From an uncultured Verrucomicrobiae bacterium (GTDB lineage: Bacteria > Verrucomicrobiota > Verrucomicrobiia > Chthoniobacterales > JAFAMB01): a stretch of 64,000 nucleotides of DNA. This document shows, one piece after another, positions 18,332 through 28,887 of the stretch (its first letter is position 1; every line of letters starts with the position of its first letter). The stretch spans positions 99,849 to 163,848 of the forward strand of contig CAWEXO010000015.1 of assembly GCA_963813025.1 (NCBI GenBank), read 5' to 3'. Both the position numbers and the translations under genes were made by a program. Under the pieces are notes generated by a model. It saw nothing but the letters and a program-made list of their open reading frames with translations, ran no database searches and was not told the origin of the DNA.

Positions 18332-20806
18332 ATGGGAAAGGCGCTTGTCATTGCAGAAAAACCGAGTGTTGCCTCCGATCTCAGTCGAGCCCTCGGCGGT
18401 CTCGAAAAGAAAGGTGATTATTTCGAAAACGAGGAGTTTATCGTCTCCTCGACCATTGGCCATTTGGTCGAACTGGCGAGACCAGGCGACCTCGATAACG
18501 GCAAGGGCAAATGGAGCTTGCAGAATCTGCCGATCATTCCCGACCCCTTCGAGCTGAAGCCGATCCCGAAGACTGAAGCCCGCTACAAACTCCTCAAACG
18601 CCTGTTAAAGCGCGACGATGTCGACTTGGTGATTAACGCCTGCGATGCCGGCCGGGAAGGCGAGCTGATCTTTCGGTACCTCATTCAGCTGGCCAACATC
18701 AAGAAACCAATTCGCCGCCTCTGGCTGCAATCCATGACCGGGCAGGCCATTCGCGAGGCGTTTACTCACTTGCGCACGAACGAAGAGATGTTGCCATTGG
18801 CCGACGCGGCAGTTTGCCGGTCGGAAAGCGATTGGTTGATCGGCATTAACGCAACGCGCGCTCTAACCGCGCTCCAAAATAAAGCGGGTGGATTCCAACT
18901 AACTCCGGCCGGCCGGGTACAGACGCCCACTTTGGCCATTCTGGTCGAACGGGAACAGAAGATCCGCCTGTTCGAGCCGCGTACGTACTGGGAAGTGTTT
19001 GCCGAGTTCCAAGTGACACACGGTACCTACCGCGGTCGCTGGTTCGACGAGCATTTCCGGCGAGAACAGGATGAAGACGCTCGCGCCGAACGTATTTGGG
19101 AACGAGCCCGGGCAGAAGCGATCAAGAGCAAAGTCCTCGGACAAAGCGGCAGCGTCACTGAAGAACGCAAGCCAACGAGCCAGATCGCTCCGCTGCTCTA
19201 CGACCTCACATCGCTGCAGAGAGAAGCAAATTCACGGTTCGGTTTCTCAGCCAAGTCGACCCTGCAGATCGCGCAACAACTTTACGAACGTTACAAGCTG
19301 ATCACTTATCCCCGCACCGATTCACGCCATTTGCCGGGCGACTATCTTGGCACAACGCGACGCATACTCGAGACGATCGCCGATCCCTCTTTGCGGACCC
19401 ACGCGCAAACGGTTTTGAGCAACGGTTGGGTCCGGCCAAACAAACGCATCTTCGATGATTCCAAAATCAGCGACCATTTCGCCATCATTCCGACGGGCCA
19501 GAATCCGCGCCCACTCGAGGACGCTCCGCGGAAGATTTTTGACCTGGTGCTGCGCCGTTTCGTAGCCGCTTTCTTTCCGCCCGCTCAATTTGAAGTCACG
19601 ACGAGGATAACGCGGGTCGCGGAAGAAGCTTTCAAAACCGAGGGCCGGATTCTCAAAGATCCGGGCTGGCTGATCGTTTACGGACGCCAGCTCGATGAAG
19701 AGGGCGACGGGGAACTGGTCGAGGTTGTCGCGGGCGAAAACGCTAAGGCAACCGAAGTCGAGGTCCGGGAGAGCGTCACCAAACCTCCGGCGCGCTACCA
19801 GGAAGGCACACTCCTCTCGGCGATGGAAGGAGCGGGCAAACTGGTCGAAGATGAAGATTTGCGCGATGCGATGTCGGAAAAAGGCTTGGGAACGCCGGCC
19901 ACTCGGGCCCAAATCATCGAGGGCCTGATCCAGGATGGTTACGTTTTTCGCGAAGGAAGAGATCTGGTGGTTGCGGCCAAAGGGCTGTCTCTCCTGACCC
20001 TGCTCGGCGCCATCGGCATCGACGCTTTGCGTTCCCCCGCGTTGACCGGCGATTGGGAATATCGCCTGAACCAGATGGAGCGCGGCCGCTTGCAGCGCGC
20101 GCGCTTCATGAATGATATCCGGTCGCTCGCCAAGCAGATCGTCGCCAAAGTCCAGTATTTCGCCAATGACAATCTCTCGATCGACAACATCGCCGGGACA
20201 TATGTCACGCTCGATGTCCGTTGTCCCAACTGCGAGGCCAGCAATCTCAAGGAGAACTACCGCACTTACTACTGCGAAAACTGCGGGTTCCGCTTTTTTA
20301 AGAACATGGCCAGCCGCGAATTGAGCGCGACGGAAGTCACGAATCTGTACCGAGAGGGCCGGATCGGTCCGTTGGAAGGCTTTCGCAGTCGTCTGGGCCG
20401 GCCATTCTCGGCCGTCGTTGTCCTAAATGATGAACGCAAGCCAGCCTTGGATTTTGAGCAGAACGGCGATCTCAAATCGCTAACGGTCGATCCGGCGGTT
20501 CACGGCAAGATTGGCCCCTGCCAGGTATGCGGCAAGGGCATGGTCTATGATGTGGGTCCGGCCTACGTTTGTGAAAATCTTGCGTCGGGCACCTGCACGT
20601 TCAAACTAGCTAAGCGGATTCTTGGCCGGGAAATTGCCCCGGATGAAATGCGCAAGATGCTGGTGGAAGGGAAAAGTGGCGTTCTCAAAGGATTTGTCTC
20701 CAAGAAGAACAAGCGGTCGTTCGACGCGATTCTGATCCTCGACAAGGGCAAAATGAGGTTTGAATTTCCGGAACGAAAAAAGCGGACAAAGAAACGGCAG
20801 GGATAA
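18332..20806 (+). CDS. topB: DNA topoisomerase III (type IA)
   Basis: IAEKPSVA, ACDAGREGELIF, GRVQTPT, ITYPRTDS; C-terminal repeats. Confidence 0.93.
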   Translation: MGKALVIAEKPSVASDLSRALGGLEKKGDYFENEEFIVSSTIGHLVELARPGDLDNGKGKWSLQNLPIIPDPFELKPIPKTEARYKLLKRLLKRDDVDLVINACDAGREGELIFRYLIQLANIKKPIRRLWLQSMTGQAIREAFTHLRTNEEMLPLADAAVCRSESDWLIGINATRALTALQNKAGGFQLTPAGRVQTPTLAILVEREQKIRLFEPRTYWEVFAEFQVTHGTYRGRWFDEHFRREQDEDARAERIWERARAEAIKSKVLGQSGSVTEERKPTSQIAPLLYDLTSLQREANSRFGFSAKSTLQIAQQLYERYKLITYPRTDSRHLPGDYLGTTRRILETIADPSLRTHAQTVLSNGWVRPNKRIFDDSKISDHFAIIPTGQNPRPLEDAPRKIFDLVLRRFVAAFFPPAQFEVTTRITRVAEEAFKTEGRILKDPGWLIVYGRQLDEEGDGELVEVVAGENAKATEVEVRESVTKPPARYQEGTLLSAMEGAGKLVEDEDLRDAMSEKGLGTPATRAQIIEGLIQDGYVFREGRDLVVAAKGLSLLTLLGAIGIDALRSPALTGDWEYRLNQMERGRLQRARFMNDIRSLAKQIVAKVQYFANDNLSIDNIAGTYVTLDVRCPNCEASNLKENYRTYYCENCGFRFFKNMASRELSATEVTNLYREGRIGPLEGFRSRLGRPFSAVVVLNDERKPALDFEQNGDLKSLTVDPAVHGKIGPCQVCGKGMVYDVGPAYVCENLASGTCTFKLAKRILGREIAPDEMRKMLVEGKSGVLKGFVSKKNKRSFDAILILDKGKMRFEFPERKKRTKKRQG

Positions 20807-21223: not shown

Positions 21224-23431
21224 CTACGCTGGCTGGTGGACTCGCGGGACGGCATCTCTCATCTTGCCAACCGCTTTCGCCACGACCGGTTGTGTTTCAA
21301 CCTGGGTTCGCTTCTTTTTGCCGGCTTCTTCCAAAAACGTCGCTTGTGCGTCGACTCGCTCGCCTTCGATCGGCAATCGCGCATAAGTCGGTTCGGAACT
21401 TTGTTGACGTCCTTTCACATTATCCCGCCAGTAAATTTCGAGAATGCGAGCGACCTCGTTCCGCAGGTCCGGGTGTTCAATGGGAAAGCAAGACTCAACG
21501 CGCCGAAAGAAGTTGCGCGGCATCCAATCCGCCGAGGCCAGATAAGTTTCCGGGCTGCCGTCGTTTTCAAAACAAAAGACCCGGCTATGCTCGAGAAATC
21601 GGCCAACAATACTGCGGACAGCAATATTCTCGCTGATCCCCGGGATACCCGATCGGAGACAGCAGATCCCTCGCACGAGCAATCGAATTTTTACCCCAGC
21701 CTGAGATGCCCGGTAAAGCGCATGGATCGTGTCGGTGTCCACCAATGCATTGAGCTTCACGAAAATTCCCGCTGGCCTCCCCGCTGCCGCATGTTCGGTC
21801 TCGCGCTCGATCATTTCGAGGACAAAATCGTGCAAAACCTTCGGCGCTGCCTTCATCTTGCGGAGGTCCGGGAACACCGAGACACCCGTCAGCCAATTGA
21901 ACAGTTCTGCGCAATCATTGGTCAGAATGGGATCACAGGTGAGCAGGCTGAGGTCAGTGTAGAGGCGAGCGGTTGAGGGATGATAGTTGCCCGTTCCCAA
22001 ATGGAGGTACCGCCTGATAGCGTCCTCCTCCTTGCGCACCACCAAAGTGAGTTTGGCGTGCGTCTTCAAACCCACGATGCCGTACACCACGTGAACGCCG
22101 GCTTCCTGCAAGGTGCGAGACCACTTGATGTTCGCTGCCTCGTCGAAGCGCGCTTTCAGTTCCATGACCACCGTCACCTGTTTCCCGCTCTCCGCCGCCT
22201 CGGCCAGAGAGGCGATAATCGGCGAGTCCCCACTGGTACGATAGAGCGTCTGTTTGATTGCCAGCACGTTCGGGTCTTCGGCCGCCTGCTCCACAAAGTC
22301 GAGCACCGTCTGGAAGCTGTCGTAGGGATGATGCAGCAGAATGGGACGTCGCCGGATCTGGGTGAAAATGTCCTCGTGATCCGCGGAAGGCGTGACCACG
22401 TTGGGAACAAACGGTTTGAACTTCAGATCGGGACGATCGACCTCTGCGATCACCGGCATCAACCGAAGAAAGTTGATCGGACCATTTACCACATACAGAT
22501 CGTCTGGAATCAATCCAAAGGTCTGGAGCAGCTGTGTGGAAATATGCGGCGGACAATCGGATTGCACCTCCAGGCGAACGGCTGCCCCGCGGTTTCGCTT
22601 TCGCAGCTCCAGCTCGATTGCCTTCAGCAGATTGTCCGATTCTTCCTCGTCGAGATACAGGTCGCTGTTTCGCGTAACCCGGAATTGATAAGCGCCCTTG
22701 ACGGTGATCCCATGAAAAAGAGAGCCCACATGTGCCTGGATCAGATTGCCGATAAAGATGTAACGATACATCCCATTCTGGCCGGCTTTGTAGGGGAGCA
22801 ACCGAGGTAAAATGCGCGGCACCTGAACCACGGCTAGGCTGGTGCTTAAATCCTTGCCAGCCAACTCCACGGCAACATTCAAGCTCTTATTCAGGAGTTG
22901 AGGAAAAGGGTGAACCGGATCAACTGCCAAAGGGGTCAGGACCGGGTAGACCGACTGATCGTAGTACTTCGAATAGTATTGCTTCTCTTCTTTGCTCAAC
23001 TCGTCATACCGAAGAAAAAAAATGTTCTGTTCTTCCAGCGCGGGCACCAAGCCGTCGCTCCACAGGCGATATTGGTCGTCCAGCATGCGCCGAGCGCGCT
23101 CCGAAACAGCCGCGAGTTGCTCGCTTGGACTCATCCCATCCGGGCCGGTATCGCTCAGGTTACTTTCGCGCTGCTGTTTCAGACCGGCGACCCTGACCTC
23201 AAAAAACTCGTCGAGATTCGAGCTGACGATACAAAGGAACTTCACTCGTTCGAGCAGCGGGTTGGTCGGATCATAGCCTTCCTCCAGCACTCGCTGGTTA
23301 AACTCGAGCCAGCTCAACTCGCGATTAACGTAGAGAGATCGGTCATTGAAAGCATCGGCCTTCTGCATAGATCCTTTCCTGGAAACAAATCGCTTGACTC
23401 TCTGCCTGGGCATCCTCTCCTCCACTCTCAC
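21224..23431 (-). CDS. ppk1: Polyphosphate kinase 1
   Basis: NRELSWLEFNQRVL, LHHPYDSF, TLYRTSGDS, GRFLEHSR; start may be the downstream MQKAD. Confidence 0.97.
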   Translation of the reverse strand: MRVEERMPRQRVKRFVSRKGSMQKADAFNDRSLYVNRELSWLEFNQRVLEEGYDPTNPLLERVKFLCIVSSNLDEFFEVRVAGLKQQRESNLSDTGPDGMSPSEQLAAVSERARRMLDDQYRLWSDGLVPALEEQNIFFLRYDELSKEEKQYYSKYYDQSVYPVLTPLAVDPVHPFPQLLNKSLNVAVELAGKDLSTSLAVVQVPRILPRLLPYKAGQNGMYRYIFIGNLIQAHVGSLFHGITVKGAYQFRVTRNSDLYLDEEESDNLLKAIELELRKRNRGAAVRLEVQSDCPPHISTQLLQTFGLIPDDLYVVNGPINFLRLMPVIAEVDRPDLKFKPFVPNVVTPSADHEDIFTQIRRRPILLHHPYDSFQTVLDFVEQAAEDPNVLAIKQTLYRTSGDSPIIASLAEAAESGKQVTVVMELKARFDEAANIKWSRTLQEAGVHVVYGIVGLKTHAKLTLVVRKEEDAIRRYLHLGTGNYHPSTARLYTDLSLLTCDPILTNDCAELFNWLTGVSVFPDLRKMKAAPKVLHDFVLEMIERETEHAAAGRPAGIFVKLNALVDTDTIHALYRASQAGVKIRLLVRGICCLRSGIPGISENIAVRSIVGRFLEHSRVFCFENDGSPETYLASADWMPRNFFRRVESCFPIEHPDLRNEVARILEIYWRDNVKGRQQSSEPTYARLPIEGERVDAQATFLEEAGKKKRTQVETQPVVAKAVGKMRDAVPRVHQPA

Positions 23432-23791
23432 GGCGCGCCACTGACCTTTTGTGACGATGTCGTGACATTATCGTTATCTCAAGCCCGGTCGACGAATAAA
23501 ATCGCCATCTTTTCGCCAGCAAAGTCCACCACCTCGCGGGTACTTCCTTCTAATTTGATGTTTTGCGGCGAAGATAGGTCAGGAAGTAAGCTAGAGACTG
23601 CCTCAACGCGTCTTCGGACCTGCAGAGGTCTTTGCGTAGCGTGCCGGTTCTCAATTCAGACAGGCTGGAAGCGCCTGTCGGACTTTGGGCAATCTGTGCA
23701 CGCGCAATCGAGCTATGGTTCGGAAGAGAGATCGAGGATGTCCCAAGCCGTCTCTGCCCCTGCGCCGGTAGATACGGTCTTGAATGTCAAG

Positions 23792-24484
23792 TCATTTGAG
23801 GATGGCAGCCAAGCGGGGATTGTAGGGTTGTTGGTGGCGAAGAACGCCGAAAACAATGTGGAGGAGTTTGCGCATGATCGCGCCACGGATGGCCAGGGAG
23901 TGTAGTTTGCGCGACTCAAGCTCTGCAGCCCATTGTCGGATGGGTTTGCACCAACGACGGGCCACGGCGGCAGGCAGATAGAGGGCTTTACGCAGGAAGG
24001 CGTCGCCGATTTTGCACAGCACGGTTTTGCCGTAGCGCGAGAAACCCGAGCGGCATTCGGCGGGAGTGAGTCCGGCATAAGCGGCCAGTTGGCGAGCCGA
24101 TTGGAACTCTTTACCGGCCAATTCGGCCAGCAACTTGGCGGCGGTAAGCTGGGCAATACCGGGAATGGAGCACAGCAGCTTGCTTTGGCGGCTTAAAGAC
24201 TCATCGGCGGCGATCAGCTCCAAGAAGACTGACTCGATGACCGCAACGCCTGCCTGGTGCAGGGCGGCGACCAACTGCTTGCCGTAGACGCCAGTGGCTT
24301 CCAAGGCGAAGTGGATTTGGCGGAGCGGCCAACCGCGGGCTTGGAGTTGGGCTAAAAATGCTCCGATGCCCGCCGCATCATTGCTGAACTTCCCCCGCCA
24401 GAGGCTGGTGCCGGTTTTGGAAAGCGCGCAAAAGTCAAAGGTTGCTTTTGCCAGGTCAATACCGATGCAGTAAGGTTTTTTCAT
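23792..24484 (-). pseudogene. IS110 recombinase with an in-frame internal deletion
   Basis: GIDLAK, LEATGVY, SIPGI and AAYAGL.P...SG are present; the KTDxxDA region and coiled coil are missing. Confidence 0.85.
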
Positions 24485-24537
24485 CAGACAGGAATTCGCG
24501 TTGAATTGGTTCTTTGTTTGATGAAGCGCTTGGGCGC

Positions 24538-24745
24538 GCACCTTTCCGACAGAGCCTTGTCCACACAGGCTCATGTTCCAACCCTGTTTGGAACGGCCTA
24601 AGATACGGTTCGGTCTTTTGCAAGGTGCGGCACGAGGAGGGTGGACTAATCTACCGGACAGGTTCTACCGACCTTTGGGCGAAGCAGTTTTCCACCCCCC
24701 TCGGCCAAGTTCTTCACCTCCAGAGTTCCGCCCTTGCGGGCGGCT
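24538..24745 (-). ncRNA. Predicted IS110 bridge RNA
   Basis: Two stem-closed internal loops whose guide segments match the flanking REP target and the element's own donor junction. Confidence 0.8.
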
Positions 24746-24779
24746 TTAAAAGGGAAAAAAGTTGGTGGGGCAAGGTACA

Positions 24780-24876
24780 AGGGCGAGAATTTATTTGAGC
24801 CGTCTTGGGAGGTGGCAACCTCTCCGTCCGGCTCAAATAAATTCTCGCCCTACCGCCACCAGGGCTCGCCCTACCG
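24780..24876. repeat. GTAG-family REP doublet
   Basis: agggcgagaatttatttgagccg ... cggctcaaataaattctcgccctac; related copies at ~25452, 44142-44277 and 57249-57412. Confidence 0.9.
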
Positions 24877-24912: not shown

Positions 24913-25377
24913 TCACCACCAATCAGCAAATCGGGTCATCTCACCTTGGAATCGCCAGCGCGCTGGCTCGTCCGTCAAGCCCGCCCTAATCGGATTCATG
25001 AGTATATACCGGTACCTTGCTTCAGCGCTGTCGTGGGCGCGAATCCGATGATGGAATGACCCGGACTGCCATCTGCAGCCTGGCTGATCGAATCGTAGTG
25101 AGATCCGCGATTTCCAAATCTTGATCCAAAGATCCAGTCCGGCTTGGCCTGAGCCCGGCCAAGCAAAGAAATGCAGGTGATCAGGCATGATCATGTAGCG
25201 CCCGACGTGCCAGTCCGTTGCTTCTCCCCACGCTGCAACGAGCAATGTCTGTACCGTATCGTTAGCCAGCCATCTGATTCGCTTTCGGGTGCACACGGTG
25301 ACAAGCACCAAAGTGGGCTGTTCGTCGATAAAAAGAACACCTTTTGCCGGGTACTTCCGCTGTGGTCGGTAGTACAT
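24913..25377 (-). CDS. REP-associated tyrosine transposase (RAYT, Y1 HUH)
   Basis: VTVCT, YMIMPDHLHF, WQSGSFHHRIR, YILMNPIRAGL; flanked by REPs. Confidence 0.92.
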   Translation of the reverse strand: MYYRPQRKYPAKGVLFIDEQPTLVLVTVCTRKRIRWLANDTVQTLLVAAWGEATDWHVGRYMIMPDHLHFFAWPGSGQAGLDLWIKIWKSRISLRFDQPGCRWQSGSFHHRIRAHDSAEARYRYILMNPIRAGLTDEPARWRFQGEMTRFADWW

Positions 25378-25645: not shown

Positions 25646-26332
25646 TCAGTTGCGTCGGCCGCCGAGTAACGGAAGCAGGTAAAACAGCAGAAAGCTGAAC
25701 GAAGTCACAAAAGCGGCTACGTAAGTCAAAGCAGCCGCATCGAGCACCCGGTTCACGGCCGTAACTTCGGCGGGTCCCCTGATAAGACCCATCTGCGCCA
25801 GGATCCGTTTGGCCCGAGCGCTCGCGTCGAACTCCACTGGCAGCGTGATCAGATTGAATAGCATGATAATTCCCCAGCCCAGGCAAAGAATGATCAGCAT
25901 CGGGCGGAGCAAACCGGTCAAGAGCCCAAAAAGCGGCAGAATGCCAACCGACATGTTCGCAAACCCGACCAAGCCAGTAGCGGCCATCCGCCAGTTCAGC
26001 GGTGCGTAAGCCATTTTGTGCTGGACAGCGTGACCGCACTCGTGTGCGGCGATCCCCACAGCGGCGGTCGACGTGCCGTTGAAGTTGTCCGGCGAGAGCA
26101 CCAAACGTTTATGAATCGGATCGTAATGATCGCCTAAGGGCTGATTGCCTTCGTAGATCTGGACATCATAAATGCCAGAGGCCGTTAAAATTTGTTGGGC
26201 GGTTTCGGCTCCCGTCAATCCAGACGATGCCGGGACCTGGCTGTACTTCGCGTACGCGGCCTTCACTCTCCCTGTCGCCCAGAGGGACAAGGCCAGTGTG
26301 CCGAAGAATACAAGAAAGCTGAAAGATGTCAT
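25646..26332 (-). CDS. Putative neutral zinc metallopeptidase (YugP-like), membrane-bound
   Basis: DHYDP, AAHECGHAVQH, TLPVEFDASARA, AAALTYVA. Confidence 0.9.
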   Translation of the reverse strand: MTSFSFLVFFGTLALSLWATGRVKAAYAKYSQVPASSGLTGAETAQQILTASGIYDVQIYEGNQPLGDHYDPIHKRLVLSPDNFNGTSTAAVGIAAHECGHAVQHKMAYAPLNWRMAATGLVGFANMSVGILPLFGLLTGLLRPMLIILCLGWGIIMLFNLITLPVEFDASARAKRILAQMGLIRGPAEVTAVNRVLDAAALTYVAAFVTSFSFLLFYLLPLLGGRRN

Positions 26333-26450
26333 TGTACGAAGATACGCTTGTTCTGAGCGGACATCAAAAACCGGTACTCACTAAGGCCGGCGGAGTCTGG
26401 CGTCAATTTTGCTTTTCCTGCCCCGGCGACTGGATACTTTTCTACAGTCT

Positions 26451-27893
26451 ATGCGTGATTTGTTCGGCGGATACGACCCGGAGACCTATTTTGACGAGAT
26501 GTTTGAGTCTGCCGGTCAGGTTCGCCCGCATTATCGCCGGCTGTTTCAGCGTTACCGGGAGATGACCCGCGAAGAGTTCGACCGCAAACGCAGCGTCGCC
26601 GATACGTCATTTCTTACCCAGGGGATCACCTTCACCGTCTACAACGCCGACGAAGGTACCGAAAGAATCTTTCCCTTTGATTTGGTCCCCAGGATCATTC
26701 CCGCCGCCGAGTGGCAGTACATCGAGAAGGGTCTTACTCAGCGCATTACCGCGCTCAACCTCTTCCTGCACGACATTTACCACGATCAGAAGATCATCAA
26801 AGACGGCGTGATCCCAGCCGACATCATCAAAAGCGCCGTTCATTTCCGGCCTGAGTTCATGGGATTTAATGTGCCCCGTGACATTTACATTCACATCTGC
26901 GGTACGGATCTGATCCGCGATAGTTCGGGGGCGTACCTGGTGCTGGAGGACAACGCTCGATGCCCTTCCGGAGTGTCTTATCTGCTCGAGAACCGGCAGG
27001 CGATGAAGCGGGTGTTTCCGAACCTGTTCGGCAAATATGCTGTGCGGCCGGTTGACACTTACTGCCAGGAGCTGCTCGGAGTGTTGCGCTGGATTTCGCC
27101 ACGAAATGAAGCCGATCCAACGGTCGTTTTGCTTAGCCCGGGAATATACAATTCAGCCTATTTCGAGCACTCCTATCTCGCTAAGACCATGGGGATCGAC
27201 ATCGTTGTAGGCGCTGATCTGGTGGTAAAAGACCAGGCGATTTTCATGAAGACCACCCACGGATTGCGGCGGGTTGATGTCGTCTACCGAAGAATTGACG
27301 ATGATTTCCTCGATCCACAGGTCTTTCGACCCGACTCTTTGCTCGGGGTGCCGGGATTGGTTGATTGCTATCGGCACGGGAATGTCAGCCTAGCCAATAG
27401 CATTGGCACGGGAGTCGCTGACGACAAAGTGGTCTACTATTTCGTTCCGCGGATGATCCAGTACTACCTGGATCAAGATCCGATCCTGCCCAATGTCGAG
27501 ACTTATCTTTCCCACTTTGAAAAAGATCGAAACTATATCCTGTCCAATCTGTCGAAGCTGGTCGTCAAGTCGGCCAATGAAAGCGGTGGCTACGGCATGC
27601 TGATGGGTCCGGCATCCACCGAAGAGGAGCGCGAGAAATTCCGCGCTCAGATCCTGGCCAATCCCCGGAACTTCGTGGCGCAACATGTGGTGCAACTGTC
27701 GCGTTCCCCCTCCTTTTGCGATGGTCATCTCTGCGGCCGCCACATTGACCTCCGTCCGTACATTCTTTACGGCGAGAAAACCACGATTATTCCCGGAGGC
27801 TTGACGCGGGTCGCTCTGCGGGAAGGCTCTCTGGTCGTGAACTCGTCCCAGGGCGGCGGAAGCAAGGATACCTGGGTACTGAATGATAACTAG
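26451..27893 (+). CDS. Circularly permuted type 2 ATP-grasp protein
   Basis: [46 protein letters not shown]. Confidence 0.93.
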
Positions 27894-27924
27894 CGAGGCT
27901 TAATTCCAGTCTTCAAAGACTCTT

Positions 27925-28887
27925 ATGCTATGCCGGGTTGCTGACGCGCTTTTCTGGTTGAGTCGCTACATTGAGCGCGCGGAGAACAACGCGCGCATGC
28001 TCGATGTCAACCTGCAACTCATGCTGGATGCACAGATCGACAATCGAAACACCCAGCAACATTGGGAGTCGATCATCTATTCGCTCGAAGATACCAAGGT
28101 TTTCCAGGAGCTCTATTCCGCGATCACAAATGAATCGGTGGTGGAGTACGTTGCTTTCGAACCCAAAAACTCCAACTCCATCCTTTCTTGCTTCTGCTGG
28201 GCCCGCGAAAACGCCCGCACGGTCCGAGAAGAGATCTCGGCCGAGATGTGGGAACAACTCAACCGCATCTACCTGGCCTTCCGCTCAGGGGAAGCACGCC
28301 GGCTCTTTGGTTCGAGCACGTACGAATTCTTTAAGTGGATCGTGGAAGGTTGCCAGCTTTTTCACGGAATCGCCGACGCCACGATGAGCCGGGACGAAGG
28401 CTGGGAGTTTTTACAGCTCGGCAAGTTCCTGGAACGGGCCGATCGGACTTCCCGCATTCTCGATATCAAATACCACATCCTGCTTCCCAAAGGCGAGCGA
28501 GTCGGCGGTAATGTCGACACGATCCAATGGATGGCTGTCCTCAAATCCTGCAGCGCTCTGGAGTCTTACCGGAAACATTACCAGGGTGAAGTGGCGCCTT
28601 GGAAAGTGGCTGAATTTCTGATCAAACATTCGACCTTTGCTCGATCGATTTTGTTTTGTGTCGATTCCATGGACGGGGCTTTGCATGACATCACTGGCGT
28701 CGATCGCCGAGAGTATCGCGAAGAGGCGGAGCGCTTGTCGGGCAAGCTGCTGGCGGATCTCTCTTTCATCACCATCGCGGAAATATTTGAGATGGGGTTG
28801 CATCAATATCTCGATCGGATGCAGTTGCGTCTGACCGAGGTTAGCGAAGCGGTTTATAGGGATTTCTGCCAGTGGTTGGACGAGTGA
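27925..28887 (+). CDS. Alpha-E domain protein
   Basis: MLCRVADALFWLSRYIERAEN, LERADRTSRILD. Confidence 0.92.
   Translation: MLCRVADALFWLSRYIERAENNARMLDVNLQLMLDAQIDNRNTQQHWESIIYSLEDTKVFQELYSAITNESVVEYVAFEPKNSNSILSCFCWARENARTVREEISAEMWEQLNRIYLAFRSGEARRLFGSSTYEFFKWIVEGCQLFHGIADATMSRDEGWEFLQLGKFLERADRTSRILDIKYHILLPKGERVGGNVDTIQWMAVLKSCSALESYRKHYQGEVAPWKVAEFLIKHSTFARSILFCVDSMDGALHDITGVDRREYREEAERLSGKLLADLSFITIAEIFEMGLHQYLDRMQLRLTEVSEAVYRDFCQWLDE

Follow-up and report, generated by a model that had tools for sequence, protein, structure and literature searches.

This locus raises the question whether an insertion sequence of the IS110 family carries, in its own left end, a guide RNA that directs it to the REP of its host, and whether a copy with a damaged recombinase gene can still be part of such a system. 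The window, that is, the whole stretch of 64,000 nucleotides that was analysed, holds one such copy. We are highly confident that its left end codes for a bridge RNA of the IS621 type, that this RNA targets the host REP, and that the copy is non-autonomous and most likely served by intact paralogues.

An IS621-like IS110 element spans positions 24779-23772 on the minus strand (1,008 bp) with a CT dinucleotide at either side, and its left end, of 295 bp, holds all four guide-like segments. The element, its ends and its surroundings are composed of the following features:

24913-25377, minus strand: RAYT-like HUH tyrosine transposase of 154 aa, a neighbour outside the IS110 element, with the same repeats on its flanks
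24780-24853, no strand assigned: interrupted REPIN-like pair of two inverted GTAG-type REPs with 23-bp arms (DNA fold, 23-bp stem)
24782-24788, minus strand: left target TCTCGCC (target positions 1-7), read at the junction
24780-24781, minus strand: left CT core, identical in 13/13 left junctions
24772-24779, minus strand: right donor TGTAC and predicted -10 box TACCTT (24777-24772), from the reconstructed junction
23792-24484, minus strand: IS110 recombinase gene of 230 codons (PF01548 and PF02371)
23772-23791, minus strand: right end, with -35 box TTGACA (23790-23785) and left donor ACCGTAT (23778-23772)
23765-23771, minus strand: right CT core and right target ACCGG, as in 12/12 right junctions

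The recombinase gene of the window has lost, in frame, 102 codons near position 24238, which correspond to residues 83-184 of the intact paralogue, a deletion that is absent from the earlier note on this DNA. The lost residues include D104 and D107, two of the four RuvC acidic (DEDD) residues, together with the coiled coil. What remains is 84% identical (193/230) to the paralogue on contig C13 and scores 137.9 bits against NF033542, just below the cut-off of 140, which the intact paralogue exceeds with 208.8 bits. The intact paralogue aligns with IS621 (E 3.2e-46) at all five catalytic positions, namely D10, E62, D104, D107 and the RSG serine, and the relatives of known structure that resemble it most are IS621 and ISCro4. 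Judged from its sequence, the window copy is a non-autonomous deletion derivative, which would yield no active recombinase.

In this genome the element family has 13 left ends and 12 right ends. Seven copies are intact, with the full frame of 336 residues and 98-100% identity among themselves, while of the other copies one has lost 27 residues, one is split by a different element and one is without the right end. A second sub-lineage comprises three copies, the window's included, all of them broken. An element whose frames of 119 and 345 aa we take to resemble an IS3-family transposase breaks up paralogue L028 (G000:C9:67101-69147) at the start codon. The genome also holds 43 matches to PF02371 and at least two other multi-copy groups of the IS110 family, with open frames of 431 and about 467 residues and about ten copies each.

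The insertion sites of these copies are uniform. All left junctions read TCGC(C/T) followed by CT-TGTAC (13/13) and all right junctions ACCGTAT-CT followed by ACCGG (12/12), CT being the shared core dinucleotide at every one of them. The genome copies are therefore at the site predicted in the earlier note, and the target TCTCGCC-CT-ACCGG and the donor ACCGTAT-CT-TGTAC that it had reconstructed are borne out by the junctions. The copies are inserted at the CTAC end of a GTAG-type repeat that is abundant and arranged in inverted pairs: the genome has 249 empty TCGCCCTAC sites where base composition predicts about 45, and TCGCCCTACCGG occurs 95 times against about one expected. In the window the second REP of the pair is split at the CT of its final CTAC, and we take this interrupted inverted repeat pair to be REPIN-like.

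The three bases after CTAC vary between the repeat copies. Only 100 of 302 empty sites have CGG there, whereas 12/12 insertions do (Fisher p 2.8e-6), as the right guide CCGGTAG predicts, so that the 7-nt right guide appears to pick a subset of the repeats. A narrower definition of the repeat, with a background of 80/192 CGG, altered the result little; as two genome copies have a common left flank of 70 nt, the independent insertions may number 11 and not 12. A C at target position 2 was present in 5/12 insertions against 13/100 (p 0.024), a weak enrichment and one among several comparisons, which agrees with the guide of the intact paralogues.

The hairpin, the loops and the guide segments described in the earlier note were all found where it had placed them on the minus strand. 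The predicted RNA is made up as follows:

24534-24768, minus strand: predicted bridge RNA, its ends set by the junction promoter and the last stem
24728-24743, minus strand: tip hairpin of the 5' stem-loop, with 99.3% of cells paired in 23 homologues
24629-24706, minus strand: target-binding loop, with an outer stem, a conserved G at 24685 and an inner hairpin (24674-24660) ending AACCTGT
24703-24691 and 24645-24633, minus strand: arms of the target-loop outer stem, CGAGGGGGGTGGA and TCCACCCTCCTCG respectively
24676-24684, minus strand: left target guide CTTCGCCC(A), of which CTTCGCCC is 24684-24677
24651-24657, minus strand: right target guide CCGGTAG, complementary to CT-ACCGG at 7/7
24649-24650, minus strand: handshake bases AT, which complement donor positions 7 and 6 (T, A)
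24538-24628, minus strand: donor-binding loop, with outer stem GCACCTT (24628-24622) and AAGGTGC (24544-24538) and inner stem-loop 24599-24567
24609-24601, minus strand: left donor guide ACCGTATC(T), that is, ACCGTATCT, which recurs at the right end (23778-23770)
24554-24564, minus strand: right donor guide GT-(GG bulge)-ACAAG (ACAAG at 24560-24556), then handshake bases GC

The left target guide had been claimed to match at six of eight bases, and it is indeed exact at target positions 3-8, with a wobble at 2, a mismatch at 1 and the core T unpaired; over the non-core bases it fits its own target at only 5/7. The left donor guide matches the joined ends at 8/8 (9 with the core T). As for the right donor guide, the segment ACAAG that had been pointed out is present, but the match is longer than those five bases, being 7/7 with a 2-nt bulge. 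This bulge differs among the paralogues (GG, TC, GA, TG) while the pairing bases are constant. The handshake AT is invariant in 23/23 aligned left ends, and the role given here to these two bases is taken from the accessible part of PMC11208158. The inner hairpin of the target loop has a further CGGTAG, which was considered as a duplicate of the guide and rejected, since it does not track the right guide in the homologues.

Folding of the region gave a structure more stable than shuffles (z = -3.8, 0/200 equally stable; z = -3.35, 1/200, in a second fold). In the single-sequence fold the 16-nt hairpin of the earlier note, which is present, proves to be the mere tip of a longer 5' stem, whose lower part is absent from the alignment consensus. 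The structure alignment comprised 23 non-redundant left ends with a mean identity of 78%, and in its consensus fold the hairpin at the tip, the stems of the target loop and the outer stem of the donor loop all reappear; the two internal loops are present by the predicted fold, the consensus fold and the pair counts. The tip hairpin gave no covariation because it is nearly invariant among the 23 homologues. Helices 2-4, of the target loop, are 97-98% paired with 5 pairs changed on both sides, and helices 5-7, of the donor loop, 80-84% paired with 8 such pairs. Over the 965 cells of the 42 pairs that were drawn on the window sequence, pairing reaches 91.7% (38-54% in slid controls). The stems are thus conserved, and 13/42 pairs are changed on both sides against 5.0 in shuffles, a control that overstates the significance because the 23 sequences are related. 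Most of the compensatory changes come from a few divergent rows, and the pair counts are support and not proof, given that the structure was drawn from one row and the rows are kin. Between the invariant scaffold columns of the homologue alignment, the guide columns vary by up to 1.6 bits.

The target guides co-vary with the insertion site in the homologues. We fetched 22 homologous loci from genomes and 52 from metagenomes. The parser received the window, the intact paralogue and 53 of the fetched loci, 55 in all, of which 47 were parsed and L004, L006, L008, L009, L071, L083, L084 and L092 were not; distant homologues of about 35% identity and the partial loci L016, L017, L020-L022, L095-L098 and L100-L111 had been excluded. 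The right guide is perfect (5/5 non-core bases) at 30 of the 37 loci having a right flank, and the seven misses are four at 3/5, which are copies of one element, two at 4/5 and one at 2/5. When only the 12 distinct right guides are counted, 57/60 bases are matched against a permuted mean of 31.9 (0/100,000), with guide and target pairs such as ACGGTAG/ACCGT, TTGGTAG/ACCAA, CTTGTAG/ACAAG, CCCGAAG/TCGGG and CACAAAG/TTGTG. The 14 distinct left guides, scored by the better of two registers in data and permutations alike, match 77/98 bases against a permuted mean of 58.5 (0/100,000). Kinship inflates these permutation tests, yet within the invariant scaffold it is the guide columns that vary.

On the donor side co-variation is limited, at donor positions 4 and 14. 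In L065 and L072 the donor ACCCTAT is accompanied by the guide ACCCTATC, and the right donor guide starts with AT where the donor ends TGTAT and with GT where it ends TGTAC; L081 and L089 have a wobble in place of the donor-guide match. For the donor-loop handshake no co-variation was seen, as the base remains G when target position 7 goes from C to G.

The fold, the guide matches and the co-variation support the bridge-RNA architecture of IS621 that the earlier note had recognised. According to the accessible parts of its descriptions, IS621 of Escherichia coli likewise has the RNA in the left end, with a 5' stem-loop, a target loop and a donor loop in the same order, and its donor (PMC11208160 supplement) equals that of the window at 12/14 bases, so that the likeness stated in the note holds. 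Both IS621 and the window clade have a CT core and the handshake AT, and a junction promoter as in IS621 is predicted for the window clade; the scaffold AACCTGT-7 nt-AT is common to the IS621 template and the window RNA, the two-base bulge in the right donor guide is as in IS621 (PMC11208158), the recombinases share the RuvC-coiled coil-Tnp layout, and IS621 also inserts at the CTAC end of a GTAG-type REP. This comparison was made by eye against the printed design template, and it includes differences too. The REP of IS621 has 6/11 target bases in common with the window's, and its right guide pairs 4 bases whereas the natural right guide of the window clade pairs 7 nt, as is natural in some IS110 orthologues (PMC11208160, accessible part). 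Unlike IS621, the left guide of the window leaves the core T unpaired, the 5' stem is longer, the target loop is one base shorter, the recombinase is deleted, and the nearest homologues outside the genome are in Verrucomicrobiota records, so the host is probably a member of that group.

IS622 / ISCro4 (10.1101/2025.05.14.653916; PDB 9t56) is described, in the accessible text, as an IS621-like clade with 14-base target and donor, CT core and handshake guides. ISCro4 is the second-best solved relative of the intact paralogue (E 4.5e-44). IS622 is 88% identical to IS621 and the window clade is far from both, its best plasmid-borne relatives being 36-42% identical. The elements ISPpu9 and ISPpu10 of Pseudomonas putida, so far as the available portions of PMC12288879 and 10.64898/2026.03.19.712850 go, are also multi-copy IS110 elements in host REPs with non-autonomous derivatives or cargo moved in trans, and the left guide of ISPpu10 also has a U.G wobble. 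They differ from the window in their REP and guides; moreover what the ISPpu9 module, itself non-autonomous, carries is a gene for a small RNA, whereas the window copy has a deleted recombinase, and ISPpu10 has a target stem-loop requirement. REP targeting is already known for IS621, ISPpu9 and ISPpu10, and 5,511 target and 2,201 donor natural guide pairs are already published (PMC11208160). The donor, the target and five RNA motifs of the present clade gave 0 matches in the readable part of the PMC11208160 supplement, and the clade may still be there.

In the circle junction as reconstructed, TTGACA and TACCTT are 17 nt apart in 11/12 copies and 18 nt in one, which gives a perfect -35, a 17-nt spacer and a -10 with 3/6 consensus bases. 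From this we infer that the joined ends create a sigma-70-like junction promoter for the RNA. A promoter scan of the linear region returned 0 matches, as is expected if the promoter needs the circle, and the joined junction itself had 0 matches in the genome assembly. In the mechanism that we propose, the ends of the element would join in a circle, where TTGACA of the right end and TACCTT of the left end would form the promoter from which the RNA is transcribed. The target loop would then pair with the GTAG-type REP end of the host, with the left guide at about positions 2-8 of the bottom strand and the right guide at positions 8-14 of the top strand, while the donor loop would pair with the joined ends and, by analogy with IS621, strand exchange at the common CT would be carried out by a recombinase tetramer. 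The literature leaves open whether the circle forms by excision or by copying (PMC13626964; 10.64898/2026.08.31.748434).

It could be argued that the guide matches are chance matches in a GC-rich structured leader, given that single segments are frequent in dinucleotide shuffles of the left end (ACAAG in 6,562/20,000, TCGCCC in 1,872/20,000) and that a scan of Rfam 15 returned no relevant family, its single weak match being to mir-1002 on the repeat hairpin (E 0.19). The same shuffles had the target pair in order in 6 and the donor pair in 2 of 20,000 cases, and all four segments in order in none (0/20,000); as the guides moreover co-vary in the homologues, chance is already refuted and we give it practically no weight. 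A more serious objection is that the recombinase might find the REP by protein-DNA recognition or through the REP hairpin, the guide matches being incidental or relics of a captured REP. The target lies at the base of a 23-bp inverted repeat, in ISPpu10 a stem-loop of the target raises specificity beyond that of base pairing (10.64898/2026.03.19.712850, accessible part), and the insertions of L001, L002, L003 and L007 match their own right guide at just 3/5. We nevertheless hold this to be very improbable, because recombinases 71-79% identical to the query occupy nine right targets, most of them predicted exactly by the element's own guide, and because, among the variable repeat flanks of this genome, those with CGG are chosen, in agreement with the guide. 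The REP hairpin may contribute on top of the guide.

With guidance by the RNA as the preferred reading, the simplest account of the window copy, and in our opinion a probable one, is movement in trans by the recombinase of the seven intact paralogues, as its own recombinase is without 102 codons including two DEDD aspartates. The donor junction, of 14 bp, is exactly the same in the window copy and the seven intact paralogues, and their left guide CCTCGCCC fits the window target at 6/7, against 5/7 for the window's own guide. The RNA of the window type is distinct from that of the intact paralogues at several positions. A second copy with the same deletion has 5 differences in 1,012 aligned bases (99.5% identical) and other flanks, and its right guide is changed to CCGCTAG while its target is normal. 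In the accessible parts of the respective reports, trans-mobilisation of end-flanked cargo has been demonstrated for ISPpu10 (10.64898/2026.03.19.712850), IS621 works with bridge RNA supplied in trans (PMC11208160) and trans activity has been proposed for the ISPpu9 module (PMC12288879). Alternatively, the shared deletion could have spread by gene conversion; copies do recombine, since a bridge-RNA fragment on C4 (L027) is a mosaic of the two sub-lineages. The family may also be RNA-guided while the window copy is a dead relic, inserted when intact and deleted later, with gene conversion, its RNA never being made. This would agree with the deletion or frameshift in 3/3 sub-lineage copies having both ends, with a promoter present only in the circle (0 promoter-like matches in the linear region), with the existence of the mosaic fragment and with the altered right guide of the sister deleted copy. 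We think it unlikely, though worth keeping in mind, as no end, core or guide of the window copy is damaged, the two deleted copies are near-identical from end to end and yet have different flanks, and trans-mobilisation is known from the cases just cited. It touches, in any event, the window copy alone and not the interpretation of the guides. The assembly has a completeness of 80%, so an intact member of the window's sub-lineage may be absent from it.

The target loop of the clade has a further peculiarity. From the conserved G to the inner hairpin there are 11 bases in 37 of 38 parsed homologues (54 given), where the equivalent spacing in IS621, counted on the design template, is 12. In the best register of the left guide at 42 loci, the core C lies eight bases after the conserved G in 18, which is the window's case, while a guide shifted by one fits best in 23, with one tie; from these sequences the target loop seems to be read in two registers. 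L007 hints at one RNA using both, by a one-base difference in a C run that could be an assembly error. A thin literature search found no description of a two-register reading of the left guide, the term concerning there a DNA hairpin. Rather tentatively, and with somewhat less than even confidence, we suggest that the clade is a natural reprogramming series with a scaffold slightly unlike that of IS621, with a shorter loop, two registers, a fully paired 7-base right guide on which specificity would mainly depend, and deleted copies riding the intact enzyme. The register shift would perhaps be the same RNA slipping along the C run; the right guide would read three bases outside the REP, dividing the repeat family into permitted and forbidden sites; and the deleted copies, with differing guides of their own, would use the enzyme of the intact paralogues.

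The window element is a well-supported further case of the known bridge-RNA system, which leaves the general view of IS110 element function unchanged and offers a clear natural case of targeting by bridge RNA, in many copies and at a distance from the enterobacteria. Recombinase genes are available in seven intact copies, and variants of the guide already exist in nature. This makes the element a sensible choice of orthologue in editing screens, since a right guide of 7 bases, which engineers build into IS621 for specificity, is natural here. The loop length and the register are relevant when such orthologues are reprogrammed from the IS621 template.

The element of the window interrupts its 23-bp inverted pair directly downstream of the RAYT-like gene. 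This gene matches NF047646 with E 8.5e-19 and 67.9 bits, a score below the curated cut-off of 80, which is reached by 0/12 matches of the profile across the genome. GTAG-type repeats lie on both sides of the RAYT-like genes on C15, C14 and C11. Three close copies exist, namely that of the window (24913-25377, minus strand), G000:C14:454612-455073 and G000:C11:605010-605458, the last two being 95% and 93% identical to the window's and the C11 one broken near its end; the same repeats flank each, and further, more distant RAYT-like genes are found in the genome. RAYTs are described as typically single-copy, so a family with several close copies may still be mobile. An intact IS110 copy (L029, G000:C11:603495-604807) lies in a repeat pair just downstream of the C11 RAYT-like gene, an arrangement equal to that of the window with different flanks; the insertions adjoining RAYT-like genes are 2/13, which may be chance.

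The other neighbours in the window, at 21224-23431 (minus), 18332-20806 (plus), 25646-26332 (minus) and 26409-28887 (plus), are ordinary genes. By eye the neighbour genes are polyphosphate kinase-like, topoisomerase III-like and a circularly permuted ATP-grasp / alpha-E pair, and by profile a zinc metallopeptidase (PF04298).

Some minor observations concern single copies and homologues. The mosaic fragment L027 (G000:C4:5760-5896) starts exactly at the left guide and is fused to the repeat via a common CTTCGCC, and is probably a microhomology deletion between repeat and guide. The guide position opposite target position 11 goes from G to C in several separate lineages (the copy at G000:C9:218158, L027, L067, L001-L003 and L007) while the target keeps its C, a change that may be a tolerated mismatch or mark a mutation hot spot. 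In L083 the region of the left target guide is longer by two bases, and the right guide still fits its target. At L015:880-910 the left junction motif of a homologue occurs three times in tandem, in CTTGTATCTTC units.
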